This document shows, in pieces, positions 5,218-46,208 of a DNA stretch of 64,000 bases. Position numbers and translations under genes: made by a program. Each line of letters opens with the position of its first letter. The first letter of the stretch is position 1. This stretch comes from an uncultured Thermoleophilia bacterium (lineage in GTDB: Bacteria > Actinomycetota > Thermoleophilia > UBA2241), in assembly GCA_963735345.1 (NCBI GenBank), contig CAVTKL010000013.1:321130-385129 (forward strand). Direction: 5' to 3'. Under the pieces are notes generated by a model. The model saw nothing but the letters and a program-made list of their open reading frames with translations, searched no databases and had not been told where the DNA came from.

Positions 5218-5219
5218 CG

Positions 5220-7288: not shown

Positions 7289-7300
7289 CAGGAGGACCAC

Positions 7301-7615: not shown

Positions 7616-7621
7616 CGGCCC

Positions 7622-7641
7622 AGCCGCCCGCGGGCGGTGGC
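7622..7641. terminator. GC-rich palindrome (CCGCCCGCGGGCGG) between convergent trxA and deacetylase genes; possible bidirectional terminator
   Basis: Perfect 14-nt palindrome in the 27-nt convergent intergenic gap. No U-tract. Confidence 0.3.
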
Positions 7642-7642
7642 C

Positions 7643-9696: not shown

Positions 9697-9740
9697 GTTC
9701 CTCCCTTCGTCGCCGGCCGGCGCCGCAGGCGGGCGGCCGA

Positions 9741-12700
9741 TCAGCCGTACGTGACGGTGAAGATGGTGCCCGTCGCGGTCAAACCGATCCCGACTTCCTG
9801 GCCCTCGACGCGCGCCGTCTCGACGTGCTCGCCACAGGCTTCGCCGAACGTCAGTTCGCTGGCGAGAGTCTCGGACTTGATGACGCCTTCGTGGCGATCC
9901 ACCAGGGCTCGCAGCCCGTCGGGCACCGACAGGGTCAGGCTGATCGTGTCCTCGATACGCAGATCGGCGTTCTTGCGCGCGAGCTGAATGGCATGCACGA
10001 ACTCGCGCGCCACGCCCTCCTCGCGCAGCGCCTCGTCGATGACGGTCTTGAGGGCGACCGTGCGTCCTGCCTCGCTTTCGACCTGATAGCCCTCCGGCGA
10101 GCCGGTCGCGATGAGCAGGTCTTCGCCGTCGAGCCTGATCTCGTCACCGCCGATAGCTAGCATCACCACGCCCGAACGCTTGAGTTCGGCGACCAAGGCG
10201 GCGCCATCTGCCTCGCGCAGCGCCGCCTGCAGCGGGCCGAGCTGCTTGCCGAGTCTCGGCCCCAGCACCTTGAGGTTCGGCTTCACCGTGTAGGCGACCA
10301 TCTCGCCCTCGTCGCCGACCACGCGCAGGTCCTTGACGTTGAGCTCGTCGAGGACCACGTCGCGCAACGCCTCGACGGCGCGCCGCTCCGCCTCGGGCAG
10401 CGCCACGACGACTTCGGCCAGCGGCTGGCGCGTCTTGACCGCGGCCGCGTTGCGCGCCGCCCGCCCAAGCTCGACGACACGGCGCGCCACGGCCATGTCG
10501 AAGGACAGGCCGTCGTCGACCGCTCCCTCCGCGACCTCCGGCCAGGCGCAGAGATGCACGCTCTCCGGGGCCGCGGCGTCGACCGAGCGCACCAGGTTCT
10601 GGTACAACTCCTCGGCGATGAACGGGGCGAACGGCGCCATGAGCTTCGCCACCGTCACGAGCGCCTCGTGAAGGGTGTGATAGGCAGCCAGCTTGTCGCT
10701 GTCGCTCTCGCTCTTCCAGAAGCGGCGGCGGCTGCGGCGCACGTACCAGTTGCTGAGGTCGTCGACGAACTGCTGGATGGCGCGGGACGTGCCGGTGACG
10801 TCGTAGTCCTCGAGACCGTCGGTCACGGTCTGCACGAGCCGGTTGAGCTCGCTCGCCACCCAGCGGTCGAGCAGCGGACGGTCGGCGAGCGGAACCGGAT
10901 GGTCCGTGGGGTCGAAGCGGTCGATGTTCGCGTACACCGTGAAGAAGCTGTACGTGTTCCAGAGCGTGAGCAGGAACTTGCGCACCACTTCGTCGACCAT
11001 CTCGGGGCTGAAGCGCCGAGGACTCCAGGGGTTCTGGCCCGCGAAGATGAACCAGCGCAAGGCGTCGGCGCCCTGGTTGTCCAGGATCTCCTCGGGCTGC
11101 ACCACGTTGCCTCTGCTCTTGCTCATCTTCTGGCCCTCAGCGTCGAGGATGTGCCCCAGACACAGCACGCGCTTGTAGGAACTGCGCCCGCTGACGAGCG
11201 TGGCAATGGCCAGCAGGCTGTAGAACCAGCCGCGCGTTTGATCGATGGCCTCGCAGATGAAGTCGGCAGGGAAGCGCTCGGCAAAGACCTCTGCGTTCTC
11301 GAACGGGAAATGCCACTGCGCGTACGCCATGGCTCCGGAGTCGAACCAGGCGTCGATGACCTCGTCGACCCGGCGCATGTCGCCCTGACACCGCGGACAC
11401 ACGAGGAGGACGTCGTCGACGTACGGCCGGTGCAGCTCGAGATCGTCCGGCACCGGCCCCAGCGCCAACTCGCGCAGCTCGGCGACGCTGCCGACGCAGT
11501 GCGTGTGGCCCTCTTCGCAGCGCCAGACGGGCAGCGGCGTACCCCAGTAGCGGTCGCGGCTCAGCGCCCAGTCGACGTTGTTGGCGAGCCACTCGCCAAA
11601 GCGCCCGTGCTTGATGTGGTCCGGGTACCAGGCCACGTCTTCGTTGGCCTGGATGAGCTCGTCCTTCATGGCGGTGGTCTTGATGTACCACGTCGCCTTG
11701 GCGTAGTAGAGCAGCGCCGTGTCGCAGCGCCAGCAGAAGGGATAGCTGTGCTCGTACGGCTCCACGCCGAGCAGCAGGCCGCGGGCCTTGAGCTCGGCGA
11801 TGATGGCCGGATCCGCGTCCTTGACGAAGACGCCGGCCCACGGCGTGACCTCGGCGATGAACCTGCCCTCGAGGTCGACGGCGTTGACGACCGGCAGATC
11901 GTTCTCCAGGCCCACGCGCATGTCGTCCTCGCCGAAGGCGGGAGCCATGTGGACGATGCCGGTGCCGTCGCTGGTCGTGACGTAGTCCGCGCCGACCACG
12001 AAGTGAGCCGGTTTCTCGGGCGTCATGTAGCGGAACGGCGGCTCGTATTCGAGGCCGAGCAGGTCGCGGCCCGAGAGTTCACGCTCGACCACAGCCTCCT
12101 TGCCGAGGACCTTCTCGTACAGGTCGCGGGCCATGATGAAACGCTCGCCGCGACTCGCCGCGACGACGTACGCGACATCGGGGTGCACCACCGCGGCGAC
12201 GTTGCTGATCAGCGTCCAGGGCGTGGTCGTCCAGACCGCCAGGGAGATCGGAGAGCCATCCTTCGCCCCCAAAGCAACGGCCGACTGGGGCGTCAGCGGG
12301 AAACGCACGTAGATCGAATCCTCGGTGACGTCCTTGTAGCCCTGCGCCACCTCGTGGCTGCTGATCGCCGTACCGCAGCGCGGGCAGTAGGGCACGACCT
12401 TGTGCCCCTGATAGAGCAGGTCTTTGTCCCACATCTGACGCAGCAGCCACCAGACCGACTCGATGTACTCGTTGGTGTAGGTGTAGTACGCGTCGCCCAG
12501 ATCGATCCAGAACCCGATGCGTTCGGTGAAGACGTCCCACTCTTCCAGGTAGGCCGTGACGCTCTCGCGGCACAGCCGGTTGAACGCGACGATCCCGTAC
12601 TCCTCGATCTGCTTCTTGCCGTTGATGCCCAGACGACGTTCGACCTCGAGCTCGACCGGGAGCCCGTGCGTGTCCCACCCGGCCTTGCGCGGCACGCGAT

Positions 12701-12962
12701 AGCCGCACATGGTCTTGTAGCGGGGAAAGAGGTCCTTGAAGATGCGCGAGATGACGTGGTGCGTGCCGGGGCGGCCGTTGGCCGTCGGCGGGCCTTCGTA
12801 GAAGACGTAGACCGGGGCGTCCTCGCGACCCTCGAGACTCTTCTCGAAGATGCGTTGCGCCTTCCAGAACGCCAGGATGCGGGCGTCCATCGCCGGGAGA
12901 TCGACGCGCGGCGACACCTCGCTGAACCTCGGGCGATCCTCGCTCACCTGACTCGCTTTCAT
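9741..12962 (-). CDS. ileS: Isoleucine--tRNA ligase (type 2)
   Basis: 1073 aa. HIGH-type motif PPTANGRPGTHH, KMSKS (KMSKSRGN), editing domain and C-terminal extension. Confidence 0.95.
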   Translation of the reverse strand: MKASQVSEDRPRFSEVSPRVDLPAMDARILAFWKAQRIFEKSLEGREDAPVYVFYEGPPTANGRPGTHHVISRIFKDLFPRYKTMCGYRVPRKAGWDTHGLPVELEVERRLGINGKKQIEEYGIVAFNRLCRESVTAYLEEWDVFTERIGFWIDLGDAYYTYTNEYIESVWWLLRQMWDKDLLYQGHKVVPYCPRCGTAISSHEVAQGYKDVTEDSIYVRFPLTPQSAVALGAKDGSPISLAVWTTTPWTLISNVAAVVHPDVAYVVAASRGERFIMARDLYEKVLGKEAVVERELSGRDLLGLEYEPPFRYMTPEKPAHFVVGADYVTTSDGTGIVHMAPAFGEDDMRVGLENDLPVVNAVDLEGRFIAEVTPWAGVFVKDADPAIIAELKARGLLLGVEPYEHSYPFCWRCDTALLYYAKATWYIKTTAMKDELIQANEDVAWYPDHIKHGRFGEWLANNVDWALSRDRYWGTPLPVWRCEEGHTHCVGSVAELRELALGPVPDDLELHRPYVDDVLLVCPRCQGDMRRVDEVIDAWFDSGAMAYAQWHFPFENAEVFAERFPADFICEAIDQTRGWFYSLLAIATLVSGRSSYKRVLCLGHILDAEGQKMSKSRGNVVQPEEILDNQGADALRWFIFAGQNPWSPRRFSPEMVDEVVRKFLLTLWNTYSFFTVYANIDRFDPTDHPVPLADRPLLDRWVASELNRLVQTVTDGLEDYDVTGTSRAIQQFVDDLSNWYVRRSRRRFWKSESDSDKLAAYHTLHEALVTVAKLMAPFAPFIAEELYQNLVRSVDAAAPESVHLCAWPEVAEGAVDDGLSFDMAVARRVVELGRAARNAAAVKTRQPLAEVVVALPEAERRAVEALRDVVLDELNVKDLRVVGDEGEMVAYTVKPNLKVLGPRLGKQLGPLQAALREADGAALVAELKRSGVVMLAIGGDEIRLDGEDLLIATGSPEGYQVESEAGRTVALKTVIDEALREEGVAREFVHAIQLARKNADLRIEDTISLTLSVPDGLRALVDRHEGVIKSETLASELTFGEACGEHVETARVEGQEVGIGLTATGTIFTVTYG

Positions 12963-13017
12963 CGCAGGGGCCGGAAACGTGATTCTACCAGACCGCGCCC
13001 TGCGCTAGACTCACGGG

Positions 13018-13773
13018 ATGGTGCTCCCCGCCTCACCGCAGCCCTCTCCTTCTCGCCGCACCCCGAGCTTCCTCGCGCTGCTCGACTATGACGGCACGAT
13101 CACGACGCGGGAGTGCAACGAGGTCGTCCTGCAGCAGCTCACCGGCGACGCCTGGCGGCCGTTTGAAGATGAGGTGCGCGCCGGCCGTATGAGCCACATC
13201 CAGTGCCTGCGCAGGCAGGTGGCGCTCATCAGGGCGCCGCGCACGGAGTTCCTCGGCGCCCTGGTCGCGGCGGCCGCCCCGACGCCGGGGCTGGCGGCCT
13301 TTCTCGACACGCTGGCGCGACGCGGCGGCCGCGCCGCCGTCGTCAGCGCCGGCTTCCGCGAGGCCATCGAGGCCTTCTGGCGGCGGGAGGCGCTGCCGGC
13401 CATCGCCACGTACGCCGGCGAGCTCGTCCCGACCGGCCCGGACGGCGGGCCGCCGTTCGACCTCGCCTTCAGCGAGGCGTTCGGCGACTGCCCGCGTTGC
13501 GGGCCCGGCGGCTGCAAGGCGGCGGTGGTGCACGCCCTGCGCCGCCCCGGCGACATCGTGCTCGTGTTCGGGGACGGCGCCGGCGACGTCTGCATGGCTC
13601 GCGAGGCTGATCTCACGTTCGCTCGCGGCCATTTGGCCGAGCGCTGCGCGGCCGATGGCCTCGAATGGCGCCCGCTGCACGACTACTCGACGGTCTGGGA
13701 TCAGGTGGACCAGTGGCTCCAGCTGCGCAGGCGCGGCGGCGGCCTCGAGCCCCCACACCGACCGGGTTTCTGA
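13018..13773 (+). CDS. HAD-IB family phosphatase (MtnX / phosphoserine-phosphatase-like)
   Basis: DxDGT motif (LLDYDGTIT) and C-terminal GDGAGD motif. Divergent from ileS across a 55-nt gap. Confidence 0.7.
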   Translation: MVLPASPQPSPSRRTPSFLALLDYDGTITTRECNEVVLQQLTGDAWRPFEDEVRAGRMSHIQCLRRQVALIRAPRTEFLGALVAAAAPTPGLAAFLDTLARRGGRAAVVSAGFREAIEAFWRREALPAIATYAGELVPTGPDGGPPFDLAFSEAFGDCPRCGPGGCKAAVVHALRRPGDIVLVFGDGAGDVCMAREADLTFARGHLAERCAADGLEWRPLHDYSTVWDQVDQWLQLRRRGGGLEPPHRPGF

Positions 13774-13876
13774 GCCGCCGTGCATCGACTATCATGACGG
13801 CGGCCCCGCGGCCCCGCGGCCCAGTATCTAGCCACGTGCACCACGCGGCCGCTCTCTCCCTCCATCTGGGTGGCTC

Positions 13877-14296
13877 TTGCGACGACGGCTGAAGCGCAGC
13901 GGTAAGCAGTTCGTGAAGTTCGCCATCGTGGGCGGGGTCGGCACGGTCGTGAACCTCGTCGTGCTCAAGCTGACCTTGACCATCTGGAGCCAGGTCGGCG
14001 CCGAGCCGTCGCTCGCCGTGGAGATCATGGCCAGCGGTCTCGCCTTTCTCGTCGCCGTAGGCAGCAACTACATGCTCAATCGCTGGTGGACCTTCCGCTC
14101 GACGGGGCCGGTCCACCTCGAGTTCGGCAAGTTCCTCACGGTGAGTCTCGCCGGCCTCTGCCTCAATACGCTCGCCTTCTCCCTCTTCCGCGCCCACCTG
14201 GGCTTCCCGGTGCTCCTCAGTCAGCTCCTGGCCATCGGCTGCGTGCTGCCGTTCAACTTCCTCGTCAACAAGTTCTGGAGCTTCCGGGCCGCCTGA
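13877..14296 (+). CDS. GtrA-family membrane protein (polysaccharide synthesis)
   Basis: KFAIVGGVGTVVNL N-terminal motif and four predicted TM helices. Stop overlaps the downstream start (TGATG). Confidence 0.75.
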   Translation: MRRRLKRSGKQFVKFAIVGGVGTVVNLVVLKLTLTIWSQVGAEPSLAVEIMASGLAFLVAVGSNYMLNRWWTFRSTGPVHLEFGKFLTVSLAGLCLNTLAFSLFRAHLGFPVLLSQLLAIGCVLPFNFLVNKFWSFRAA

Positions 14297-15573
14297 TGGA
14301 TGCCCTCACCGGCGGCGAACGCCATCGCGTGAGCGTCCTGCCGGCGGTACTGCTGAGCACCGGCCTCACGCTTCTCGTGCTCGCGGTGCTGCTCCCCAAC
14401 CTCTGGTACGGGCTGCACGACATCAGCGACATCCCCGTCTACCAGGGCTATGCCGAGAGGATCGCCCTCGGCGAGGCGCCCTTCACCGGCGACTTCCGGA
14501 TCGAGTATCCGCCGCTGGCCGTCCCTCTCTTCCGGCTCCCCGGCCACGTCGGCAGCCTCAGCGCCTACACCACGTGGTTCAGCATCTCGATGGGCGTCCT
14601 CACGGTGCTCACCGCCGCCCTCACGACCCTCGTCGCCTGCCGCCTGTGGCCCCGCGGCGGTCGCGCCTACACGGCGGCGGTGCTCTTCCCCGTCGGCGTG
14701 GCCCTCACGGGGGCGATCATCGTGAACCGCTATGACGTCGCGGTCGCGCTGGTCGTCGCGGCGCTGCTCGCCTGCCTCGTCCAGCGCTGGTACGTCTTCG
14801 CAGCTCTCGTCCTCGGCGTGGGCTTCGCGCTCAAGATCACGCCGGCCGCGATCCTGCCCCTCGTGCTGATCCTCGCCGGCCCCCCGAGACGCTGGCTGTG
14901 GCCGATCGTCGCGTTCTCGCTCGCCGCGCTGGCGCCCTTCGTCCAATACCTCGTCGCGGCGCCGGGGGGTATCTGGTACGTGTTCCACTACCACATGGCA
15001 CGACCGCTGCAGATCGAGAGCGTCCTTGGCACGCCGATGCTTCTGGGTCAGCTACTTGGCGCGAACTGGGCCAGATACGGATCCAGCTACGGATCGCACA
15101 GTCTCGTGGCTCCAGGCGCGCACCTCGCCGCCACGGCCTCCGGCGGACTCACCCTGCTGGCCGTGGTGGGTGTGTACCTGCTGGTATGGCGACGCCGCGC
15201 ACGACTCCTCCAGGTCCCTCAGGAGCAGATCCTGGCCGTACTCGCGCTGATCCTCGCGCTGATGACCTTCAGCAAGGTCCTCTCGCCGCAGTACATGATC
15301 TGGCTGCTGCCGGTCTGGGCGCTGGTGGGCGCCGGCGACCGTGTCCTCGGCGTCCTGGGGGGCCTCGTGATCCTGCTCACCCAGGTCGAGTTCCCCGTGC
15401 TGTACTGGCGCCTGCTCAGCATGGATCCCGCGACGCTGGCCATCGTCATCACGCGCAATTCCCTGCTCGTAGCCTTCTTCGCCGTCGTAGTGTGGCGACT
15501 GTGGCGGTTGCCGGGGGACGAAGCGCCTCGCGCAATCGTCCACACGTCACAGGCCGTTCAACCGCCCGGCTGA
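14296..15573 (+). CDS. Polytopic membrane glycosyltransferase, GT87/DUF2029-like (GT-C fold)
   Basis: About 12 hydrophobic helices with Arg/Trp-rich loops. Translationally coupled to gtrA via ATGA. Confidence 0.6.
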   Translation: MDALTGGERHRVSVLPAVLLSTGLTLLVLAVLLPNLWYGLHDISDIPVYQGYAERIALGEAPFTGDFRIEYPPLAVPLFRLPGHVGSLSAYTTWFSISMGVLTVLTAALTTLVACRLWPRGGRAYTAAVLFPVGVALTGAIIVNRYDVAVALVVAALLACLVQRWYVFAALVLGVGFALKITPAAILPLVLILAGPPRRWLWPIVAFSLAALAPFVQYLVAAPGGIWYVFHYHMARPLQIESVLGTPMLLGQLLGANWARYGSSYGSHSLVAPGAHLAATASGGLTLLAVVGVYLLVWRRRARLLQVPQEQILAVLALILALMTFSKVLSPQYMIWLLPVWALVGAGDRVLGVLGGLVILLTQVEFPVLYWRLLSMDPATLAIVITRNSLLVAFFAVVVWRLWRLPGDEAPRAIVHTSQAVQPPG

Positions 15574-20013: not shown

Positions 20014-21066
20014 TCACCTCACACGACCTGGCGCAGCGCCCCTCACCAGTCTTCGCGCCCATCGTCGGCCGCGCCGCATCCAGCGATCGCACGGTTCGCC
20101 CAGCTTCACGAGTGAGCGGCCGAGGCGGTACACAGGCGACCGCAGCAGGGCTTCGGCATCATCGACTGGCCTCATCTCCAACGCGGCACTGTGAGCCAGA
20201 TCGGACATCATGCTCACCACGGCGGCAGGGTGGGCGCCCTCGTACCGCTCGAGCCAACTCGGGTAGCGATAGACATTGTGCACCCTGTACGGCTTGCGAA
20301 GCGTCAGGTACGAGTCGGCGAACCAGCGCCGCTCGTTGACAAACCAGTCGCCGTGCAAGCCCCAGTTCGAATAGTACTCCACCTTGTCGCGCACCTGCGC
20401 CGGAAACAGCAGCGAGTAGTGGTGCATGTGGATGCCCCTGCGCGCCATCTCCGCGGCGTCCAGCCAGCAGACCGAGCGGGTGTCCCGGCCGCGATCGTCC
20501 AGCACGGTAGGGGGGCGATGACCCGCGTAGGAGTATCCAGGCCCCCACTTGAACAGCCTGTGGAAGTCCGCAGCCCCGCGGCGAAGATACCATCCGTCCG
20601 CCACGTAGGCCGGCCTCGCCCAATGGGTGATCGTGGGAAAGGTGACAGCCGTGACCTGCGGCTCGCGCGCGAGCCGTTCGACGACCGCTTGCATGTCGGT
20701 CGAGTGGTAGAACTCGTCGACGTCGACCTGCCACAGGTAGTCCCCCGTGGCACGCACCGCGTAGGCCCGGCTCTGCTCGTCCTTCTCCCCCGGCCAGAAC
20801 CCGTCCTCGTGACCTTCGTCCTCGGCGGTCACGATCACGAGTTTGCCCGCCGGATCCTCCTCGCGCGCGAAGCGGCGCAGTTCCTCCAGTGTGCCGTCCC
20901 GGGAGTGCCCGTCGGGAGATGCGATCGCCGCGGCGCCCGGGGCGGCGCCCTCGACGACGATGATCTGGCCAGCGAACGGATAGAGCGCCCGCACGTTGTA
21001 CGTGACGAACGGCATCCCGTTCAGGACGATCATGCCAAAGGTGATGTTCGGACCCAAACGACTCAT
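20014..21066 (-). CDS. Glycosyltransferase (GT2-like / GT-A fold)
   Basis: N-terminal GMIVLNGMPFV and QIIVVEGAA regions, acidic DVDEF motif. ATGA overlap with the downstream-reading AsnB-like gene. Confidence 0.6.
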   Translation of the reverse strand: MSRLGPNITFGMIVLNGMPFVTYNVRALYPFAGQIIVVEGAAPGAAAIASPDGHSRDGTLEELRRFAREEDPAGKLVIVTAEDEGHEDGFWPGEKDEQSRAYAVRATGDYLWQVDVDEFYHSTDMQAVVERLAREPQVTAVTFPTITHWARPAYVADGWYLRRGAADFHRLFKWGPGYSYAGHRPPTVLDDRGRDTRSVCWLDAAEMARRGIHMHHYSLLFPAQVRDKVEYYSNWGLHGDWFVNERRWFADSYLTLRKPYRVHNVYRYPSWLERYEGAHPAAVVSMMSDLAHSAALEMRPVDDAEALLRSPVYRLGRSLVKLGEPCDRWMRRGRRWARRLVRGAAPGRVR

Positions 21067-22509
21067 GAACCGTGCCCGTTCCTCGCCGCATCCCGACGCC
21101 GCAGCAGCGCCTCGATCGGCCGGAGCGTGAGGTACGCCGCGTAGGCCGGCAGTCGCTGCTCGGCGACTCCCAGCCGTTTCATCATCTCGGCCCAGCGACG
21201 GAACCCGTGGGTCAGGCCGAGACGCCAGTAGACCTCCCACCACTGGCCCACAGGCCCGACAGTGCGATTGATCCAGCGGACGTAGTCGGGCTTCACGACC
21301 TCGCGCAGCAACGTAACGTCGAGAGGCCGCAGCGGCACGCGCCTCATCGCCTGGAAGTTGAGGGTGTTGCGAGAGTCGGCGTTCCAGCGCGTGTTCTCGA
21401 GATCCACTCCTTGCCGCGCGAAGAACTCCTTCTGCCACCGCCGGTCCCTGTGGGAGCGCGGGCGGCAGCGTCAGCATGGCCATGGCGAGGTCGACGCTTG
21501 TGAAGGGCGCGGCGCGCCCCGAAGCCCATGGCCTCGGGCGCCCTCACGAGGTAGGAGAGGAGGGCGATGCGCAGCCGGCACGCCGCCACCAGTCTCGGCC
21601 GGTACTGGGTCCGCAGACGCGGGTCCGACTCCAGGAACTCCTGGGCGCCGAGACGCTCGCTCTGGAGGCGGCTCATCGCCGAGTCAGCGGACATCGACGG
21701 GCCCCAACGGAGCAATGCGTAGACGTCGTCTGGACGGTCAAGCCTGCCCGTCTCCCCCTCGGGCCACGGAGAGCCGTTGAACCAGTCTCCACAGGAGCCG
21801 GTGAAGACCACGCTCCCAGCGGCCGTCCGTGAGCGGATGAAGTCGTAGAACTCCAGGTGGTACATGCCGTGCGCGTGCGTCGACACTCCGTATAGCGCAT
21901 CCCAAGCGTCGATGCGTTGGTGGAAGCGGCCCAGCGGCACCAGTTCCCAGCGGATGCCGAGGCGCCGCGCCAGCTCCTTGGCCTTGACCACCTCGAAGAG
22001 ACTCCTGAGGCCTGTCGCTCGTGCCGTACGTGAACGCGCGCACGCGACGCTTGTCGCTGAGCAGTACGTTGATGAAGCGCGAATCGTAGCCGCCACTCGT
22101 CGGCACGACGAGATCCCCTGCCGCGCACGGCGGCGGCGTCGTTGATCCTGGCGCTCGCCAACCCGAGCACGTCCTCGACGCTGCTCTGCCCCTCCAGCCC
22201 CTCGAGAGTGGGGTCGGGCAGGTGCTCCACGCGAAGCCCCGAGGGGCCAGACCACAGGCGCGACGAGTGCCGCAGCATGCGCACGTCGCGCACGGGCGTA
22301 CGGCCGAAGACGCTGAAGCCGAAGTCAAGGTAGTCGTTGAAACCCTCGGGATCGATCTCGACGTTGACGAGGTCGATGACCTCGTTGATGTTGGCTCCGC
22401 TGCGACCGGTCCGCTCGTTGTAGAAGAACGGCCGCGAAGCGAGCCAGTCCGACTCGAAGACGAGCGTCTCGCTCTGGTGCTCGAGATGGGACGCTTCAGG
22501 CAACGGCAT
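21063..22509 (-). pseudogene. Asparagine-synthetase-like amidotransferase (PP-loop SGGYDS), interrupted by >=3 frameshifts
   Basis: Protein is spread over four reading frames (ORFs 21673-22509, 21738-22565, 21344-22255, 21063-21407). SGGYDSRF PP-loop is present. N-terminus lacks the Cys2 glutaminase nucleophile. Confidence 0.6.
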
Positions 22510-22568
22510 GCGGCTCCTCTCTGGTCACGGGCAACGCGAGCGCCCGCTCCGCGCGCCGCCGGCATGCC

Positions 22569-23912
22569 TCAGCGGCCAGGAACGCGAACAGCCAGAAGCC
22601 CATGGGGTACCGGGTCGGGCTGAGGAACCCGAACGACGTCAGGCTCTCGATGAGCGACACCGACGAGCGTTCCCAAGAGGACGAGCGCCAGGAACTCGGC
22701 CTCGCCCTCTCCGCTGAGGCTCATTCTCAGCGGCGCGCCAGCCGGAGACGACATAGAGGAGCAAGACCGTCGCAACACCGATCAGGCCCAGTCGGTACAG
22801 CACCGGCACCCAGACCAGATCGGCGCTCATCCACAGGATGTCAGCGGCCGTGGGCTCCTGCTCGACGGTGACGAATCCTTGGCCCAGCGCGTGGCTCTCC
22901 GAGCCGATCCAGGCGTAGGTGCGCTGCAGCTTGCCCATTCGGTTCTGGAGGTTCTGGTCAGCGACGACGCTCCCGCTGCGCGTGGTCTTGACGATGCGCT
23001 TGAGGAAGTACTGGGACTGGACCGGCAGAGCCACGGTAGGCGACCGCGCCGAAGACGGCCACGAGGGCGAGCACGGCTACCGCTCGTCTCAGGGCCTGCC
23101 CGACCTGCCGCGCCTTGAAGACGCGCACGCCGAGAACCACGACGAACACCGCGATCGTGCACCGACGAGCAGGGTGCGCGTGTACGAGACCCACAGCGCC
23201 GCCAACGGTGACCATCATCACCCCGACCCAGAACACGCTCCACCGAGGCTTGGCGAAGCAGAAGGCGAGCGCCAGGATGCAGAAATCTGCGGCATGAAGT
23301 AGAAGCTCCTCGTGATCTGCTGACCCATGAACGTGATGCTGAGGTACTCCGTCGACCACGTAGATCGGAACGTGCAGCCCCTGGTGCAGGATGAATAGAC
23401 CTGCGGCGATGGTGTTGACGACCACCAGGGCGTCGACGAGATCGACGGTGTCGGAGCGACTCGCGCGACAGAGCATCCCACGAAGAAGGAAGTAGCCGAC
23501 GAAGAGATAGATGAAGCCCTTCGCCTCGCCCACCGTCGCGCTGAGGTCGCCGAAGCGCGACGACCGTGAGAGCCACCTCGAGCGCAGCCAGCGCGGCGAG
23601 CCCCAGCAGAACGACCTCCTCCGGGGCCGAGAGCGACGGGCCGAAGACACGCGGTCGAGGGTCAGCGCGTCGCCGTGACGGCAGCACGCAGCTCGAAGTA
23701 CACGACCCAGACGATCACGAGCCACATCATGATGTGATCTGAGATCGAGAGCCGCCCGGGTATCCAGAAAGGCCGTGCGTAGTCGAAGAACACCGCGAGA
23801 TTCTGATACATGAGGAACGGGATGCCGAGCAGGAAGATGCGCTGCCGAAACGACGCCCCACGAAGTACGCGAGGAGGAGCGCGGGGAGCGCGTAGTGCAG
23901 GAGCGTCAGCAC
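22569..23912 (-). pseudogene. Wzy/O-antigen-ligase-like polytopic membrane protein, heavily frameshifted
   Basis: Hydrophobic helices are distributed over ORFs 23727-23912, 22958-23725, 22827-23687, 22639-23034 and 22569-22778 in different frames. Confidence 0.45.
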
Positions 23913-24414: not shown

Positions 24415-26063
24415 GTGACCTCGACGAAGACAATCCTCGTAGGCATAGCTACGTCCTTGCTGCTCGTGCTCGCACTGGCCCCCGCCCCTGCGGGCGCCGC
24501 AGTAATGACTCAAGAGCAGCACGCACGCCTCGCCACCCTCAACGCCCGCGCCACAAGCATCCACGAGCGGATCGGGGAACTCCGCAGGCACACCCGCCTC
24601 GCGCGACACAGCGACAAGCTGCAGCGTCGACTCGTCCGTGCAGACGCAGCGCTGATCCGCGTCAACCAGAGCCTGGCCTCCCTGAACCGTGCCGTTCTCG
24701 ATACCCCCCAAGCGCGTAGTGAGTATGCGGTGAGGCTCCTCGACAGCAATCGTCTTGCTGCGCACGTGACCGCCGACGCCGTGGTCCTGAATGGGCGAGC
24801 CCTGCGCCTCTGGAACGCCGGACTGGGGCGGAGGGTCGAAGCGGCGCGCACTGATCTGGGGATCCTGAGCTCACAGGTTCGCGCCCAGCGTCTGGACTCG
24901 CGCCGACCGAAGCCGCCCTCGAGGCCGGCTCCGACGCCGACAGTGAAGCCAGCCGTGATGCCTACTCCTACTCCTACGCCCACGCCGACTCCGACGCCCA
25001 TTCCCGCGCCCACGGTGACACCGGCACCGACTCCGACGCCCATTCCCGCGCCCACGGTGACACCGGCACCGACTCCTGCACCGGCACCGACTGTGACGCC
25101 GACACCGACGCCCACCGTGACACCGACGCCGACGCCGACCGTGACACCGACACCGACGCCCACCGTGACGCCGACGCCCACACCGACTCCCGCGCCCACG
25201 CCGGCCGATGCGCCTGCGGACTGGACGCTCGTGTCCGGCAAGACTTTCACGACGTACGTGGTGCCGACCGGCACGCAGAACGTCGTCTATGAGGACTGCA
25301 CGTTCACCGGCGGCCTGCCCGACTGGAACGGCGTCCTCACCCTCACCAATCCCTGCCACGACATCACCTTCCGCAATTGCGTGATCGACTCAGGGCCGGT
25401 GAACGGCGTGACCATCGTCGACCAGGGCGGCACGATCTCCAACATCACCTTCGAGAACTGCACCTTCCGCTCCTCGAAGCGCATGGGCTTCGAGTGCATC
25501 AGCCGCGGCTCCGGCAGCAGCGGCTACCGCAACATCAACCTCATCAACTGCACCTTCGAGCCCCAGGGCTCGGAGATCGTCAGCTACGACGGCACGGCCG
25601 CATCCGGGCTATCTCGACGATCAGCGGCTGCACGCTCAAGGGCGGCGGCACGGTCCAGCGCAGCGGCGGCATGGGCAGCGGCCTCGAGCTCAACGGCATC
25701 ACCAACATGACCGTGACGAACAACCGCATCTACGCCTGCGCCAACGGCCTGCTGAACCTGCAGATGGGGCAGATGGACGGCTACACGGGCGACAGCAAGT
25801 GGGTCATCACCGACAACCTCATCGACGCCTCGACCTCTTACGGACCGGTCTCGGTGGGCTCCGCGGTGGTCGGCGGCATCAACGTCTACGGCGGCGTCTA
25901 TGCCCGCAACACGGTGATCAGCGGCCTCTCCTCGGGCGGCTGCCTCACCCTGAACGGGAGCCACAACATGAACTGGCGCACGACGACCTTCCGGGACGCC
26001 CAGAACCGCGCGGACTACGTGACGCCTTGGCAGGGCAGCGGCAGCTCGGGGAACCTGTTCTGA
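24415..26063 (+). CDS. Secreted right-handed beta-helix protein (pectate-lyase/epimerase-like) with coiled-coil and Pro/Thr linker; one frameshift near 25605
   Basis: Signal peptide, then a heptad-like region, then a (PT)n linker, then parallel beta-helix repeats ([30 protein letters not shown]). Frame changes from the 24415 frame to the 25377 frame. Confidence 0.7.
24910..25201 (+). repeat. Coding tandem repeats encoding a [14 protein letters not shown] / PTPTVT linker
   Basis: Perfect 42-nt tandem duplication (24985-25026 = 25027-25068), followed by about four 18-nt PTPTVT units. Confidence 0.85.
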
Positions 26064-26112: not shown

Positions 26113-27219
26113 CTAGCCGCGGATCCACCTGTTCATGGATGAGGCGTCCACAAGGGCCGACCCGAGATCCCGGAACTCCGACTCGCCGTGCAGCAAAGCG
26201 TCGACCTGGGTCAGGACCGGCACGCTGCGGTCGCGCAGAAGGAGCCGAGGGCGAAACGGCGCCATCATGCCAAAGACGGACCGATCGCCTCTCTCTTCGA
26301 GGAGCGAGGGCACGCGAAGCCAGCACATGAGATCGGCCCATCCGCTGTTGGGCGCAAACATGAGCCTGCAACTCCTGAGGTAGCCTAGCTCCCGGGTCAA
26401 CAGCGAGGCATCGGCCAGTGAGGCGGTCGTGACCATGCCGTCGGGCAGCACGGAGCCGCCGGGATGCCCGTAGACCAGAAGCGGCAAGCACAAGTGCGCG
26501 GCCGTCGTGCGAGCGTCCGCCAGCACTTCCTCCACGGAGCTGTTTCTCGGGTCGAGCGAGAAGGACACGGACCTCATCTGCACACCCACGTGGTCCGGGT
26601 AGGTGTTCTCCGAGGAGGCGCAGTCGAATGCTGACGGCAGGTAGGTCGGGGGCATCACGTCCCCATGCTTCCAAGGGTCATCGTTGTCGAACTCCGTGGA
26701 GACCTCCACGAGGTCGCGATCCCAGCGCGTCCAAGGGCGAGCTGGGGCCAGGTAGACTCGATGACTCAAGAGGCTGCGCCATTCCTCCTGCAGCCGTCTA
26801 GCCTTCTCGCGAGCCACGACCCCCCTGATCCTGTTGAGCCTGCCCCTGTCGGGCTGCCTGATGTGTGGGCCGAAAGCGAGCCGGTCCGCGCCGTAGCGCC
26901 GGAAGAGGGCGTCCTCGGCGGCGAACAGATCCGGATCGTCGATCGCCGCACCCGCCGGGTACAGTTGCGGTCGACGCGCGAGCACTTTCCAGCCGGCTCT
27001 CAGCCAGGGCTCTACCCGGCCCAGGAAGTAGCGGATCTCGATCCCCATCTCACCTGGGTAGGCAGGCAGCAGGTGACCGTCGCTCACAATGGGGTGCATC
27101 GGCGCAGCCGCCGCACGAGCAGGGACGAGGTGCAAGCGCTCTGCCGACACAGCGATGATTCTCCGTTTGATGCCGAAGTGAGGACTAGTCACGAGAGAGA
27201 GAATGTCGTTCGGACACAA
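26113..27219 (-). CDS. Hypothetical protein, possibly a GT-B-like glycosyltransferase or capsule-synthesis protein
   Basis: 368-aa ORF with coding composition and no recognised motifs. Start may be the internal M at 27102. Confidence 0.35.
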   Translation of the reverse strand: MCPNDILSLVTSPHFGIKRRIIAVSAERLHLVPARAAAAPMHPIVSDGHLLPAYPGEMGIEIRYFLGRVEPWLRAGWKVLARRPQLYPAGAAIDDPDLFAAEDALFRRYGADRLAFGPHIRQPDRGRLNRIRGVVAREKARRLQEEWRSLLSHRVYLAPARPWTRWDRDLVEVSTEFDNDDPWKHGDVMPPTYLPSAFDCASSENTYPDHVGVQMRSVSFSLDPRNSSVEEVLADARTTAAHLCLPLLVYGHPGGSVLPDGMVTTASLADASLLTRELGYLRSCRLMFAPNSGWADLMCWLRVPSLLEERGDRSVFGMMAPFRPRLLLRDRSVPVLTQVDALLHGESEFRDLGSALVDASSMNRWIRG

Positions 27220-27249
27220 ACGCTAGTGGAATAGTGCGTACCACGGTCT

Positions 27250-27684
27250 TCAGAGCTCGACGAGACCGGAGTCGATCCCAGAGGCCCCGGGGGCCGCCGC
27301 CGAGTCCGGGTCACACGTTCCCGCCGAGAGGATGTCCGGGATGCCGACATCTCGAGCCACGCTCAGTGCCCAAGCAGTACGAAGCCCCCGTGGCTTCTCA
27401 TCGTTGATGAGCACTCGCTCGCCAACGGGCAGCCCAAGCAGCAGGATGGCGTACCGCAGCCCCCAACGAGCAAGTTGTTCCTCCGTCTGCTGTCTGTAGC
27501 TATGGGCCCGGGCACTCAACAGCACGACCACATCACCCTCCGGCACATCCCGAAAGAACTCCCGCACCCCCGGCAAAGGGGTCTCCTCGGCCGAATGCAA
27601 GTAGCCATTGTGCGGGAAGATCACGCCGTCGACGTCAATGAGCCACGTCTTGGGCAAGTCACTCAGCTGGGAGCGCCTGATCAC
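27250..27684 (-). CDS. HAD-superfamily phosphatase (KdsC/GmhB-like sugar-phosphate phosphatase)
   Basis: DxDG motif (WLIDVDGVIF). The N-terminal part of the long ORF is S/W-rich junk, and a GTG at 27684 is the preferred start. Overlaps the SIS gene end by 26 nt. Confidence 0.5.
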   Translation of the reverse strand: MIRRSQLSDLPKTWLIDVDGVIFPHNGYLHSAEETPLPGVREFFRDVPEGDVVVLLSARAHSYRQQTEEQLARWGLRYAILLLGLPVGERVLINDEKPRGLRTAWALSVARDVGIPDILSAGTCDPDSAAAPGASGIDSGLVEL

Positions 27685-28267
27685 CGCTCTTGCCCCTTCT
27701 GCCGATAGCGCCACCTGGATGGTTGTGCAGGAACTGCTCCAGAGGGACACCCAGTCTCTCCGAGAGATCCACGGCGATGGCATTGAAGACAGCGAGGAAG
27801 ACGATGGATGAGTTGACCGGAGCCATGTCCCAGAGGTCACCCTCGTGCGCGAGTTCGACGACCGTGCTGTGCTGCGTGAGGTCGGCGATGGGCGACGCGG
27901 CCGTGCAGGTGAGCGACCATGTGGTCAAGGGTCGACTCTGCACAAGCCGCGCAAGAGCGACGCTCTCTTCGGTCGATCCGCTCTTGGAGACGATGATGAG
28001 CAGGTCGTGCGGCGCGAGGATGCCCAGATCGCCGTGGACTGCACTGTTCGAGTGGAGGAATCGAGCCGACAGCCCGAAGCTGTTCAGGGTCCCGGCGAAC
28101 TTCTCGCAGATCGGGACGTTCTTGCCCAAGGCGGTGACCACGACCTGGTGGCCGTCCCGCAATGCAGCCTCGCAAGCATCTGCGAGGAGCCCGACCCCAT
28201 CCGCATCCCTGTCAGCCACCGAGGCGATCGCAGACGCCTGGTCAAGTAGCCGCTCTCTCAGTCCCAC
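27659..28267 (-). CDS. SIS-domain sugar-phosphate isomerase (KpsF/KdsD arabinose-5-P isomerase-like, no CBS domains)
   Basis: ALGKN...HGDLGIL...SKSGSTEE closely matches the KdsD SIS core (GKSGHIGRK...HGDLGM...SNSGES). Confidence 0.65.
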   Translation of the reverse strand: MGLRERLLDQASAIASVADRDADGVGLLADACEAALRDGHQVVVTALGKNVPICEKFAGTLNSFGLSARFLHSNSAVHGDLGILAPHDLLIIVSKSGSTEESVALARLVQSRPLTTWSLTCTAASPIADLTQHSTVVELAHEGDLWDMAPVNSSIVFLAVFNAIAVDLSERLGVPLEQFLHNHPGGAIGRRGKSGDQALPAE

Positions 28268-29763
28268 AACTCCCCCAGCACCTCCGTGCCCCTGTAGAAG
28301 GCGCCGCAGACCTTATCATAGTCATCCCACGCATAGGTCGTCAGCGAGAGCCAGATGATGCCCAGAATCGTCATGAGGTGGCGCTCGGAGATCCCACTGG
28401 CTTCGAAGACCTCAGGAGCCAGTGATTCCCACCCACTGCTCTCGATCTCCAGGTCGACCTCGTGCGGCTTTATGGAGAGGCGAAAGCGACCCACGTTGAA
28501 CTGATCGTAGTTGGTCAGAACGGAGTAGAGCAGCTTGCCCCAATCGTACGCAGGATCGCCAAACAGGCGTGTCGTCCCGAAGTAACCGCGCGGGTCGATG
28601 AAGACGACGCGCTCTCCATCCAGCAGCATGTTCGAGAACGTCGGATCCCCGTGGATGAAGCAGAAGCGCTCCGGGTAGTGACGACGCACCATCTCACTGA
28701 GCGCCTCCCACTGGTAGAGTGGGTTCAGATACGTCCTGCCGTTGATGACGAGCTCAGGGCGATCGGCGAACGGAACGAGCCTCCTCACCTTCGCCAAGCG
28801 CTCCGCCGTCTTCGTGAGATAGGCAGTCTCCAGGCTCGAGGCATCAGCGCTCACTGGGGGGAAGGCTCCATGGATCTCGCTGAGCTCGCGAATGATGGTG
28901 TCCAGAGAACCTTTGGACGCGTGCCCGCGATACGGCTCCCGTCCGCGAACACGCCCCATGCGCAATGGGTCGTAGCCACGAACCGCCGGCAGACACTGCA
29001 GCCCCGCGAGAGAAGCCTGTCGATACCAGTTCTGCTCCAGCTCGGCCAGCGTCCGCCCTTGCTCATCGAGGGGCTCCTTCACGATCGATCCGTCCGGCAG
29101 CGAGGTGATGCTATTGAACGGACGGCTCGCGAACTCGCCGACGCCCCGCTCCTCGTAAGCCTCCAGCGTGCCGATCTCCGAACAGATGTCGCCGAGCGGC
29201 ACGCCCACCGCCTGCCATTCGGGCAATGAAGCGAGGTGCTCGCAGAACTCGCCGGCAGGGGGGACTGAGAGCAGATCAGAGGTCCGCGGGAACCAGAAGT
29301 AGCCTGCGATCCCCGCCACACTGGAAGGCAGATGAATCGGCTTCCCGTCCTGGAGAGACCACCGACATGGAAATGACTGCGAGAGACCGATCGCGGGCAA
29401 GTCAAGACCCGAGCAGAGCGGGACCGGAGACTCGGAGTAGACGAGATCGCACCATGAGAGCACGACGGGAACCTCCGGGTCCAGCTGCTCAGCCGCTTTC
29501 GCGACCCCGGCACAGGTCCCAGAGCCATCAGCCGAGACGATGCGACAGCGCTGATGGCGCCCGAATGCCTCCATGTACCTCCTGAGCACGTCGAGCTTGT
29601 AGTCGCCGATGACGACGATGTCCGCCTCGGGGAAGAGGTCCAAAGCGTGAAAGAGCAGCGGCTTGCCGCGAAGAGGGACAAGCGCCTTGGGCTTGTTGGC
29701 GGTGAGCTGTGCCATGCGCGTGCCTTGGCCCCCCGCCTGGATTATGACGTTGAGCTCGCCCAT
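28258..29763 (-). CDS. Bifunctional nucleotidyltransferase (N-term) / APH-choline-kinase-fold sugar or small-molecule kinase (C-term)
   Basis: N-terminal IIQAGGQGTRM...KPKALVPL nucleotidyltransferase signature. C-terminal FIHGDPTFSNMLL and FIDPRGYFG Brenner/APH motifs. Resembles AmgK-MurU or LicA-LicC fusions. Confidence 0.7.
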   Translation of the reverse strand: MGELNVIIQAGGQGTRMAQLTANKPKALVPLRGKPLLFHALDLFPEADIVVIGDYKLDVLRRYMEAFGRHQRCRIVSADGSGTCAGVAKAAEQLDPEVPVVLSWCDLVYSESPVPLCSGLDLPAIGLSQSFPCRWSLQDGKPIHLPSSVAGIAGYFWFPRTSDLLSVPPAGEFCEHLASLPEWQAVGVPLGDICSEIGTLEAYEERGVGEFASRPFNSITSLPDGSIVKEPLDEQGRTLAELEQNWYRQASLAGLQCLPAVRGYDPLRMGRVRGREPYRGHASKGSLDTIIRELSEIHGAFPPVSADASSLETAYLTKTAERLAKVRRLVPFADRPELVINGRTYLNPLYQWEALSEMVRRHYPERFCFIHGDPTFSNMLLDGERVVFIDPRGYFGTTRLFGDPAYDWGKLLYSVLTNYDQFNVGRFRLSIKPHEVDLEIESSGWESLAPEVFEASGISERHLMTILGIIWLSLTTYAWDDYDKVCGAFYRGTEVLGELWD

Positions 29764-29799: not shown

Positions 29800-31092
29800 C
29801 TAGGCCCCGGAGACCCCGCTCACCGACAGTTCCAGCGGTCCGTCAGAAATGCGCACGTCATCCTCACCAAAGGTCGCCGCCCAGTTGGTGCCATAGCGGA
29901 AGTCGAACCCTACTCGGCCCGGATCGCAGGTCTCCACGTCGAACTCGAGATGGACGGCGTCGATGACTCGGCGAAAGGCCTGAGTCGCAGCCAGCTCGAG
30001 ACGGTATCTTCCCGACGCCAGCGGCAGTCGACGTATGTCGAGCGTGATCGGCAAACGCGCCGAGACGGGAACGAAGCTGCTCCTGCCGAAAGAGCTCTGG
30101 CGCCCCGAACACGACCGGCTGTCCGACGATCGTGACGATCCTCCATTCGACGTTGAAGGCCAGCTCTTCGCGACCCACGCAGGCCATTTCGACGTGCAGG
30201 CTGGTCAGGGAGTCCTCGTCCTGCGTCGACGTCCAGAACGTGCGCCTCAGCGATCGCGACGTCCGCCATCGACTGCTCGTCGTCCGCCCTGCGGACGGTG
30301 AAGACGGTGCCCTGAGTGCCACCCTCGGCGACGTACTCGTCGACGATTTCGTCGACGTCTCCCACCTGCACGAGTCGACCCAGCGTCGAGAAGAGCACAG
30401 CGCGTGCACAGGGCGCGCACGGCGCCCATGTTGTGGCTGACGAAGACGACGGTCCTGCCGCTGCTGGCGACCTGCTCCATCTTGCCGAGGCACTTCTTCT
30501 GGAACTCGGCGTCGCCGACGGCAAGCACCTCGTCGACGATGAGGATCTCCGGGTCGAGGGACGAGGCGACCGCGAACGCAAGCCGCACGTACATGCCGCT
30601 CGAGTAGCGCTTCACGGGTGTGTCGAGGAAGCGTCCGATCTCGCTGAACTCGACGATCTCGTCGAACTTGCGCTTGATCTCGGCGCGCGTCATGCCCAGG
30701 ATCGCGCCGTTCAGCAGGATGTTCTCGCGACCGGTCAGCTCGTTGTGGAAGCCGGTGCCCACCTCGAGGAGGCTCGCCACCCGCCCTCTGATCTCGGCCC
30801 GCCCTTCGGTCGGCTCAGTGATGTGAGAGAGCACCTTCAGCAGCGTGCTCTTGCCGGAGCCATTGCGTCCGATCACGCCCATCACTTCGTCGCGCTTCAC
30901 CTCGAAGCTGATGTCCCTGAGCGCCCAGAGCGTCTCCGAGGTGTGGGTAGCGGCGCCAGGGTGGCGAAGACGCTCGAGCGGGCGCTTGGCGGCCTGCGTG
31001 AGCGTGTCACGCAGCGTTCGATAGCTCGCACGCTCACCACCGATGCGGTACATCTTGCCAAGGCCGACCGTACGCAGGGCGACGTCGCTCAT
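29800..31092 (-). pseudogene. wzt: ABC transporter ATP-binding protein Wzt with C-terminal carbohydrate-binding domain; three apparent frameshifts
   Basis: Walker A GRNGSGKST, signature YSSGM, Walker B ILIVDE. Reading continues in shifted frames (ORFs 29910-30581, 29864-30493, 29800-30054) into a Wzt-C-like beta-sandwich. Confidence 0.7.
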
Positions 31093-39863: not shown

Positions 39864-40233
39864 GTTCAGCCTCCTCGGGCACGCCTCCCGCGCAGAAGGG
39901 TCATGCGCTGCCCCGACAAACCCACCAGCGACGCGTCCAGCCACCGTCCGGCAGCGCCGCAAGGACGTCAGTATCTTAGCCGCTGTGGCGCCCCGAGGTC
40001 GAGATAGACTTGCCCACTGGCAGCGACTCGCCCGCCCGATTCGAATGACCTCAGCCCCGGCACGCGCTGTGATAGGCTGCCAACCGAACCGCCCGAAGGA
40101 CCTGTTCGTGGACGATCATGAATGCGTTAGTTCCGCAGCGGGCTCGTGACGTACCAGACGGATCCTGCGGGCAAGCAGAGACTGGCCGAGCGGAGACTCG
40201 ACCTGCACATGCCGACGCAATGGAGCTGACCTG

Positions 40234-46198: not shown

Positions 46199-46208
46199 TG
46201 GAGTAGCG

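Follow-up and report, generated by a model that had tools for sequence, protein, structure and literature searches.

Indel errors in long-read assemblies fragment genes (PMC9262707), and a preprint describes the same class of long-read indel error (bioRxiv 10.1101/2021.08.23.457338). In such Nanopore frameshift errors (IDEEL test; proovframe), single-base indels split genes within an otherwise contiguous contig, and the true sequence can be recovered via intact homologues. A related situation is strain collapse or chimeric consensus resulting from microdiversity, in which strains of one species are merged into one contig and a strain-variable region is hit. Strainberry is one of the strain-separation tools that address strain collapse in metagenome assembly (PMC8302730). 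The locus described here lies in a window of 64,000 nt, i.e. the whole stretch of DNA that was analysed, and resembles both situations: its split genes can be rebuilt with intact homologues, and in a sister sample, two strains part ways at the window's glycan locus. It differs from the classic Nanopore errors, which are genome-wide homopolymer deletions, as the window has clustered non-homopolymer insertions in a polymorphic locus, mostly pairs of SNP alleles.

In gene content, the locus is similar to Wzy-dependent O-antigen/EPS loci, encoding a Wzy-like protein, a Wzz/Wzc-type co-polymerase (one Wzz + tyrosine-kinase protein), the glycosyltransferases GT1, GT2 and GT4, a deacetylase and an asparagine-synthase-family protein. 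Its very high strain divergence (dS 0.42 versus flanks that are ~98.5% identical) is likewise typical of such loci. It departs from them in a Wzy-like protein that stays below the Pfam/NCBIfam thresholds, in an AsnB-like protein without a glutaminase N-terminus and in the presence of an ABC-2/ATPase exporter pair near the Wzy-like locus.

Across 21063-23912, the coding signal of the minus strand hops from frame to frame, as seen in a GC3 frame plot, a codon-usage Viterbi segmentation and a three-frame reading. Fourteen frameshifts were located in the two glycan genes, 10 in the Wzy-like and 4 in the AsnB-like gene, corresponding to ~4.9 per kb (21.06-23.91 kb). Twelve of these events are insertions and none lies in a homopolymer. 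Their sizes (+1, +2, -1 and -2) shift the frame in both directions, and the codon bias is kept in every frame piece of the GC3 frame plot. The initial annotation of this DNA had described two adjacent glycan genes as broken across frames, which is true, with more hops than it had stated. It had also listed the ileS, heparinase and BNR genes as unbroken, and these indeed encode intact proteins of 1073 aa (ileS), 739 aa (heparinase II/III-like, 53098-55317) and 1106 aa (BNR protein, 36642-39962).

Two same-species assemblies, A (ERZ25039459 contig_45637, L001) and B (ERZ25039462 contig_27073), were used as comparators. Their flanks are 98-99% identical to the window and the flanking proteins ~99% identical, versus a dS of ~0.42 between the A and B alleles of the Wzy/AsnB-like segment. 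In assembly A, both genes are intact (468 aa for the Wzy-like and 480 aa for the AsnB-like protein); in assembly B, both are also broken. None of the 14 frameshifting indels of the window was found in A or B in a three-way alignment. The sister assemblies themselves carry private clusters of 1-nt insertions elsewhere, breaking genes that the window has intact. One such cluster of assembly A corresponds to window 45.3-48.6 kb, where 4 of 11 single-base insertions place both alleles of a SNP side by side (a both-allele merge); assembly B has private insertions in Wzy and GT1. Sample ERZ25039462 contains two contigs with a common flank that is 98.7% identical (window 4295-15550), followed by different glycan loci, one of the two contigs stopping at window 15531. 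This divergence after a common flank indicates strain heterogeneity at exactly this locus. The contig L016 has a different locus at the window's glycan site. Searching JGI metagenome contigs for Wzy alleles like that of the window gave no matches with the exact patterns used (indel-spanning with N{1,2}, and a 30-mer conserved in three strains). P0123 was considered as a fourth strain and rejected as an unrelated, apparently eukaryotic contig. The GTDB relatives are only ~60% identical and were used for taxonomy and synteny, not for alleles.

The Wzy-like gene (22496..23912, minus strand) encodes a putative O-antigen polymerase/ligase-like membrane protein and was reconstructed from 11 frame pieces by three-frame reading and orthologue alignment. 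Its length is 1417 nt in the window, whereas the intact orthologue (L001:6937-8343) has 1407 nt (468 codons); frameshifts lie near 23853, 23688, 23562, 23351, 23286, 23206, 23162, 23036, 22733 and 22657. The one at 23853..23854 is a 1-nt deletion compared to L001, at a spot where one extra nt is present in the L012 assembly. All others are insertions. At 23688..23689, the alignment and the merge test described below identify a +1 both-allele merge, with allele A reading GAGTTGGTGC, allele B GAGCTCGTGC and the window GAGCTGCGTGC. The same holds for 23350..23351 (A GTCGAGGAG, B GTCGACGAG, window GTCGACGGAG), for 23560..23562, where both bases of a G/T SNP are present, for 23036..23038 (A TAC, B ACC, window TACC) and for the C/G SNPs at 22731..22733 and 22655..22657, all of them +1 insertions. 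At 23157..23162, where the window has a +2 insertion, B-type sequence (GTGCA) gives way to A-type sequence (CGATCG) at an offset of 2 nt (alignment and merge test). Two further sites were read from the alignment by hand: a +1 insertion compared to both sisters at 23200..23206, where the G of the B allele and the T of the A allele occur together, and a +2 insertion beside a private substitution at 23281..23286, which by eye breaks down into a merge at a G/A SNP and another at a G/C SNP, each of one base, and is not counted as a merge in the formal test.

The AsnB-like gene (21063..22509, minus strand), an asparagine-synthase-related PP-loop gene, consists of five frame pieces by the same approach and measures 1447 nt versus 1443 nt (480 codons) in its intact orthologue (L001:8330-9772). 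Its start overlaps the stop of the Wzy-like gene by 14 nt, and its stop overlaps the start of the next gene (ATGA). Frameshifts lie near 22127, 21998, 21520 and 21454. The first (22127..22128) coincides with a 3-nt indel that separates alleles A and B in the alignment, the window being intermediate with -2 compared to A and +1 compared to B. At 21998, a +1 C insertion (GAGTCT[C]TTCGAGG) is unmatched by either allele in the alignment and merge test. Alignment places the third, also +1, within a 30-nt block of 13 private substitutions (21489..21520) that may represent a third allele. The last is a +1 C insertion at 21454..21457, bordering a block that diverges strongly between A and B (alignment and merge test). 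In addition, the aligned window is 3 nt longer than both sister alleles at 21700..21703, which leaves the frame unbroken.

Once repaired, the AsnB-like protein matches hundreds of intact homologues (~478 aa), with alignments that cover 94-100% of it, and therefore its pieces are parts of single genes rather than chance ORFs. The SGGxDS PP-loop motif is present as TSGGYDS (~22105-22085 in the minus-strand frame) and conserved in the homologues P0001, P0002, P0003 and P0008. Family assignment of both genes was based on homologues and the intact orthologue. The hand-repaired AsnB-like protein of the window has no Pfam match at E<=0.01; the orthologue, with 95.6% amino acid identity, reaches 26.2 bits with the Pfam Asn_synthase profile (cut-off 21), and PF00733 is precomputed on many homologues. 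An N-terminal Ntn glutaminase domain with its catalytic Cys is absent from this protein, which begins with MPLPEASH. The orthologue matches TIGR01536 with its residues 12-192, which cover profile positions 132-314 (21.9 bits, cut-off 267), leaving the first ~130 profile positions, Cys included, without a counterpart. The assignment as a putative asparagine-synthase-family PP-loop protein lacking the glutaminase end is broadly right as judged from these comparisons. Of the identities given in the initial annotation, the PP-loop asparagine-synthase family and, broadly, the Wzy-like family can be retained; amidotransferase cannot, with the glutaminase end missing. For the Wzy-like protein, neither the repaired window version nor the intact orthologue has a Pfam/NCBIfam match above thresholds. 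Its family (~468 aa) has about 20 of 111 members with a precomputed PF04932 (Wzy_C/O-antigen-ligase domain), several are named 'O-antigen ligase' by JGI, the sequence is visibly hydrophobic, and the locus also encodes Wzz and glycosyltransferases.

Most of the extra bases in the window occur at SNP sites between A and B, where the window has both alleles side by side. In the formal merge test, 8 of the 12 insertions private to the window can be written as the A base followed or preceded by the B base at a column that differs between A and B, compared to 6.6% expected by chance for random insertions (binomial P = 1.4e-7). Sites 23206, 23286 and 22128 follow the merge pattern by hand, beyond these eight. 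Most merges (9-10) fall in the Wzy-like gene. The indels at 21998, 21520, 52189 and 19501 and three in an ABC ATPase gene are not accounted for by the two alleles at hand and would call for another allele or for ordinary error in the reads. A literature search found no published description of a signature with both SNP alleles in tandem.

The coding sequence beneath the indels is undamaged and under purifying selection. Without the extra bases and read in the intact frame, neither the Wzy-like nor the AsnB-like gene of the window has an internal stop. The dN/dS values between the window and A are 0.21 (Wzy) and 0.37 (AsnB-like), next to 0.20 and 0.42 between A and B, so that neither gene has the nonsense codons or the dN/dS approaching 1 that mark pseudogenes. 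Lesions shared with the closest relatives are equally absent, all 14 frameshifting indels being private when compared to two same-species strains. Between 21.06 and 23.91 kb, 14 private frameshifting indels stand against 34 private substitutions, versus ~10 private indels, mostly intergenic, and 166 substitutions between 31.4 and 52.5 kb (Fisher P = 2.9e-5). The conserved flanks contain 3 indels in 9.6 kb compared to A (98.5% identical) and 2 gap openings in 11.2 kb compared to L016. Synonymous divergence is additive, with 0.252 + 0.184 close to 0.423, implying that the window has almost no private branch. A fine-scale mosaic of A and B was dropped as independent evidence for chimerism because comparing three taxa, one of them a genuine third lineage, gives the same interleaving. 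The short private branch and the fine-scale A/B pattern also fit such a lineage near the three-taxon node, and this part of the argument carries little weight by itself.

Taken from sequence comparison, the most probable reading, at a probability of about 0.88, is that the frameshifts are not mutations of the organism but errors of consensus or polishing, caused by mixed haplotypes when long metagenomic reads were assembled. Consensus indels in a strain-heterogeneous region had been named as the alternative in the initial annotation, and the comparative evidence favours it. The source of the window is probably a Thermoleophilia-like genome (Actinomycetota) of soil or sediment. Its nearest GTDB relatives are Thermoleophilia MAGs named 'MFD...bin', and the contig names of the sister records are Flye-style. 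The MFD MAGs were assembled from Nanopore reads using Flye 2.9.2 (--meta --nano-hq) with one Medaka round (PMC12313526); judging from the sister records, the window probably has a similar history of Nanopore sequencing, assembly by Flye --meta and a single Medaka round. From ~15.5 kb onward, the window is a strain-variable glycan locus, and the sample probably had at least two Wzy/AsnB-like haplotypes resembling alleles A and B, which the assembler would have collapsed into one contig. In SNP-dense stretches, reads of the minority haplotype may align as insertion/deletion pairs rather than as mismatches. The consensus would then retain both SNP alleles in tandem, each spurious base shifting the frame. 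The merges probably arose in either the alignment or the polishing step. In agreement with such a chimeric consensus, most extra bases are alternative alleles of the population (8 of 12, and three more by hand), and the errors are limited to strain-variable sequence with clean flanks.

Decay of the polymerase module, the reading preferred in the initial annotation, would mean that the strain lost a Wzy-dependent polymer and that both genes, as true pseudogenes, have been gaining frameshifts. The clustering of frameshifts in a few glycan genes beside intact housekeeping neighbours is consistent with this, as are the frequent loss or replacement of glycan loci between strains, exemplified by the different locus of L016, and the broken Wzy and AsnB-like genes of assembly B. 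However, the indels are private, nearly all insertions and mostly tandem SNP alleles; none is common to either sister strain. They come without any accompanying nonsense mutation once the frame is repaired, selection is not relaxed, and private indels are far more frequent relative to substitutions (~14:34) than in the flank (~10:166). Bacterial pseudogenes are deletion-biased, against the strong insertion bias seen here. Moreover, no natural mutational process is known that would put the two alleles of a population SNP next to each other, as at 8-11 sites in this locus. Decay is therefore unsupported and improbable. Somewhat less probable again is that the extra bases are real and stem from repeated recombination of two divergent Wzy alleles within a mixed population, for example through faulty heteroduplex repair at mismatches as the source of the both-allele insertions, or, in a tamer version, that the genes are true, very recent pseudogenes. 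If recombination were the cause, the polymerase module would be inactivated and the insertions would represent an undescribed mutational signature between alleles differing at ~15% of sites.

Merging of sequences could also have taken place within one genome, if it has two diverged tandem AsnB-like copies that the assembler merged as paralogues. L001 has tandem AsnB-like copies at 8330-9772 and 10001-11448, the second being a B-like allele, and the AsnB-like gene of the window is intermediate between the two. Against this, 9-10 merges fall within Wzy, of which L001 has only one copy except for the last ~190 nt; assembly B has one AsnB-like copy; and the tandem of L001 could itself be two haplotypes joined end to end. 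We consider a collapsed duplication as improbable as decay. Random long-read error in a low-coverage stretch without strain mixing agrees with the indels at 21998, 52189, 19501 and 30048-30378, which match no known allele, and with the homopolymer miscount at 19422 (C6 versus C7). It cannot account for 8 of 12 insertions copying the alternative SNP allele, nor for the crowding of errors into the 3 kb with the most polymorphism next to a conserved flank of 20 kb that is nearly clean, and is very improbable as the overall cause. Biological recoding that keeps the genes functional (programmed ribosomal frameshifting, transcriptional slippage or phase variation) would explain the preserved codon bias in every piece and nothing else. 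With 14 sites of four sizes in both directions, contexts that are neither homopolymeric nor slippery and orthologues that lack the sites at 90-96% protein identity, its probability is negligible; programmed frameshifting and phase variation are ruled out by sequence context and the number of sites.

If real, the frameshifts would record that an uncultured actinobacterium from soil has lost a surface polymer whose synthesis depends on Wzy. Since they are judged not to be real, the practical value of the mixed-haplotype reading lies in quality control. Annotation of the contig will list ~20 spurious gene fragments or pseudogenes in the glycan locus, and pseudogene or 'gene decay' statistics from such MAGs would be inflated exactly where surface-polysaccharide loci are hypervariable. 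Given two related assemblies, one can look for the both-allele-in-tandem signature without any reads, making it a cheap separator of consensus artefacts from true pseudogenes.

Further frame-breaking indels that had previously been missed occur near the glycan genes, in the beta-helix, ABC ATPase, deacetylase and CapK-like genes. The beta-helix/Pro-Thr-repeat protein gene (24415..26063, plus strand) is split into two overlapping ORFs via a +2 insertion at ~25612, whereas each sister has an unbroken version (557 and 540 aa). In the ABC-transporter ATPase gene (minus strand), three private +1 insertions lie towards the C-terminus, at 30378 (T), 30226 (A) and 30048 (A), and jointly restore the frame; for 27.4-31.4 kb, 'private' refers to a comparison with a single sister. 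In the CapK-like gene, a frame-breaking indel is located at 52189. The polysaccharide deacetylase gene (minus strand) carries a window-private compensating pair, +T at 19501 and -C at 19422, the latter being a C-run miscount (6 C versus 7).

The window has a G+C content of about 67% and contains long spurious ORFs in all frames; therefore, codon-position signals were used. A GC3 frame plot and a Viterbi segmentation by codon usage, with the long ORFs of the window as training set, agree that the coding signal on the minus strand switches frame repeatedly at 21.06-23.91 kb. Reading across the three minus-strand frames reveals two genes: a gene for a Wzy-like membrane protein (GTG at 23912 to the stop at 22498-22496) and an asparagine-synthase-like (AsnB-like) gene with a TSGGYDS motif (ATG at 22509 to the stop at 21065-21063). 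A 14-nt overlap joins the end of the Wzy-like gene to the beginning of the AsnB-like gene, whose own stop overlaps via ATGA with the start of the next gene, encoding a 350-aa glycosyltransferase-like protein. After repair by hand, the AsnB-like protein (481 aa) has hundreds of intact matches of ~478 aa with ~60% identity over 94-100% of the length, so its pieces belong to one gene. The frame breaks of the initial annotation are thus confirmed and exceed what it reported: the AsnB-like gene is shifted 4 times and the Wzy-like gene 10 times. As noted there, the neighbouring ileS, heparinase II/III-like and BNR genes are intact.

The best database protein match (91% identity) led to ENA ERZ25039459 contig_45637 (1.47 Mb; assembly A), and cluster look-ups led to ERZ25039462 contig_27073 (1.06 Mb; assembly B) and contig_54195. 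All three are conspecific with the window: flanking DNA is 98.5-98.7% identical between the window and these sister contigs, flanking proteins ~99%, and gene order is the same. The nearest GTDB genomes (~60% identity) are Thermoleophilia/Actinomycetota MAGs, mostly with MFD...bin names and Flye-style contig names. The pipeline of the MFD MAG project combined Nanopore reads, Flye 2.9.2 (--meta --nano-hq) and one Medaka round (PMC12313526); we infer the platform and pipeline of the window from these sister and related records.

In assembly A, both the Wzy-like (468 aa) and the AsnB-like (480 aa) genes are intact. Indels were placed by pairwise and three-way alignments of the window with assemblies A and B, and every frame break is an indel absent from both. 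On the minus strand, the Wzy-like gene has a -1 at 23853, a +1 at each of 23688, 23562, 23351, 23206, 23036, 22733 and 22657, and a +2 at 23286 and at 23162. The AsnB-like gene, also on the minus strand, has an indel at 22127 (-2 relative to A, +1 relative to B), a +1 at 21998, 21520 and 21454, as well as a +3 at ~21700 that keeps the frame. The net changes of +10 nt (Wzy-like) and +4 nt (AsnB-like) account exactly for the gene lengths. Insertions make up 12 of the 14 events, and none lies in a homopolymer.

Most insertion sites coincide with a SNP between assemblies A and B, and both of its bases stand in tandem in the window. At 23351, allele A reads GTCGAGGAG, allele B GTCGACGAG and the window GTCGACGGAG; at 23688, these are GAGTTGGTGC, GAGCTCGTGC and GAGCTGCGTGC, and at 23036 TAC, ACC and TACC, respectively. 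An insertion was scored as such a merge when the local window sequence can be traced through the A/B columns with a return to a polymorphic column to take the other allele. Eight of the 12 private insertions passed, compared to 6.6% of single bases inserted at random in this region (binomial P = 1.4e-7), and plain random error is regarded as extremely improbable. Read by hand, 23206 and 23286 are merges as well, and at 22128 the window is intermediate for a 3-nt indel polymorphism between the alleles. The indels at 21998, 21520, 52189, 19501 and 30048-30378 are left without an explanation from alleles A and B, which accounts for part of the remaining uncertainty. The both-allele pattern would be expected of a consensus built on two mixed haplotypes, and no natural mutational process known to us yields it. 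With a probability of roughly 0.88, the frame breaks, although present in the record, would be consensus or polishing artefacts from the collapse of two haplotypes in a hypervariable glycan locus. This had been the alternative of the initial annotation (consensus indels in a strain-heterogeneous region) and, given the merges and the restriction of all breaks to the window, it appears the best explanation, rather than a biological feature. That the mixture stems from a collapsed tandem paralogue is given a very low probability, and recoding practically none.

The initial annotation had preferred decay of the polymerase module. Bacterial pseudogenes are deletion-biased, and genuine decay with 14 frameshifts should be accompanied by nonsense codons, relaxed dN/dS, deletion bias and lesions common to relatives, none of which is seen. 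Projected onto the frame of assembly A, the window sequence has no internal stop codons in the Wzy-like (468 codons) or AsnB-like (480) gene. For Wzy-like and AsnB-like, respectively, dN/dS is 0.21 and 0.37 between the window and A, 0.25 and 0.36 between the window and B, and 0.20 and 0.42 between A and B. The dS of Wzy is additive (0.252 + 0.184, close to 0.423); thus, the window is intermediate between A and B, having next to no branch of its own. In addition, the region of both genes (21063-23912) has 14 private frameshifting indels versus 34 private substitutions, and 31.4-52.5 kb has ~10, mostly intergenic, versus 166 (Fisher P = 2.9e-5). Based on the lack of stops, the dN/dS values, the absence of lesions common to the sisters and the excess of insertions, decay of the two genes is considered very unlikely.

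The sister contigs indicate how variable this locus is. Assemblies A and B have a dS of ~0.42 in Wzy, yet their flanks are ~98% identical. Contig_27073 stops at window position 15531, and contig_54195 is 98.7% identical over 4295-15550, sharing ask, asd, trxB, ileS and others up to a 425-aa protein, and then continues into a wholly different glycan locus with an epimerase gene and several GT4 genes. Therefore, different strains co-exist in one sample (ERZ25039462) and branch exactly here; the strain-variable island begins at ~15.5 kb. The clean conserved flanks argue against a generally poor assembly. Assembly A has the same type of error elsewhere: 11 private 1-nt insertions at window 45300-48650 (L013:13900-17100 in its own locus), 4 of them both-allele merges, fragment a 2-hydroxyacid dehydrogenase, a SIS-domain and an acetyltransferase-like gene, all three of which the window and assembly B have intact. 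Assembly B has private insertions of its own in Wzy, the AsnB-like gene and GT1. Assembly A also carries a tandem duplication (L001:8090-11450) of the last ~190 nt of Wzy and the whole AsnB-like gene (window 22690-21004, twice); copy 1 (8330-9772) is intact and copy 2 (10001-11448) is a B-like allele with one frameshift. The duplication may be genuine, or the assembler may have placed two haplotypes end to end. Window 26113-29478 is a strain-specific addition of 3.4 kb to the glycan locus, missing from A and at least partly in B, encoding a 368-aa protein without family match, a SIS-domain protein and a 506-aa nucleotidyltransferase/APH-like kinase fusion.

The indel problem reaches beyond the two genes. 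A beta-helix gene with a long Pro-Thr-rich repeat (24415-26063, plus strand) is split by a private +2 at ~25612; it also shows a 24-nt repeat-length difference to assembly B at ~25184, and its outer part is only ~70% identical to assembly A. On the minus strand, the C-terminal extension of an ABC-transporter ATPase has private single-base insertions (30378 T, 30226 A, 30048 A) within 330 nt, which sum to +3 and restore the frame, leaving the ABC_tran domain intact. A private compensating pair in a polysaccharide deacetylase gene (minus strand; 19501 +T, 19422 -C) shifts the frame of ~26 codons but leaves the ORF open; the -C is a C-run miscount (C6 vs C7), and such a pair would escape ORF-based checks. 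A CapK-like gene (~51954-53351, plus strand; 465 aa in both sisters) has a private +A near its 5' end at 52189, which is not a both-allele merge. Finally, a private -1/+1 pair 55 nt apart (39953-40008) lies a short way upstream of where the sister assemblies place the BNR start and is probably intergenic.

The surrounding locus encodes a Wzz + tyrosine-kinase protein, GT1/GT2/GT4 glycosyltransferases, a deacetylase and an ABC-2 exporter pair. Concerning the 'AsnB-like amidotransferase' of the initial annotation, the asparagine synthase PP-loop family holds (intact assembly A protein: Pfam Asn_synthase 26.2 bits, cut-off 21), but amidotransferase is not established: the N-terminal glutaminase part is missing, the alignment of the orthologue to TIGR01536 starts at profile position 132 with a score far under the cut-off, and the Cys looked for after the initiator Met is absent. 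Wzy-like family members have 467-470 aa, some with Pfam Wzy_C (PF04932) and several named 'O-antigen ligase' by JGI; neither the window protein nor its intact orthologue reaches a curated family threshold. Members of the two families are neighbours in 5 of 10 GTDB loci, and many database matches have both on one contig; the Wzy-like gene and its glutaminase-less asparagine-synthase-like partner are a conserved adjacent pair (window 21063-23912; GTDB loci L002, L003, L004, L007 and L008). In two of these loci, both from MFD MAGs, the families look broken as well: the Wzy-like homologue at L003:8622-9873 aligns in two pieces in different frames, and the AsnB-like homologue at L007:10140-11384 (database protein of 402 aa) aligns from residue 49 only.
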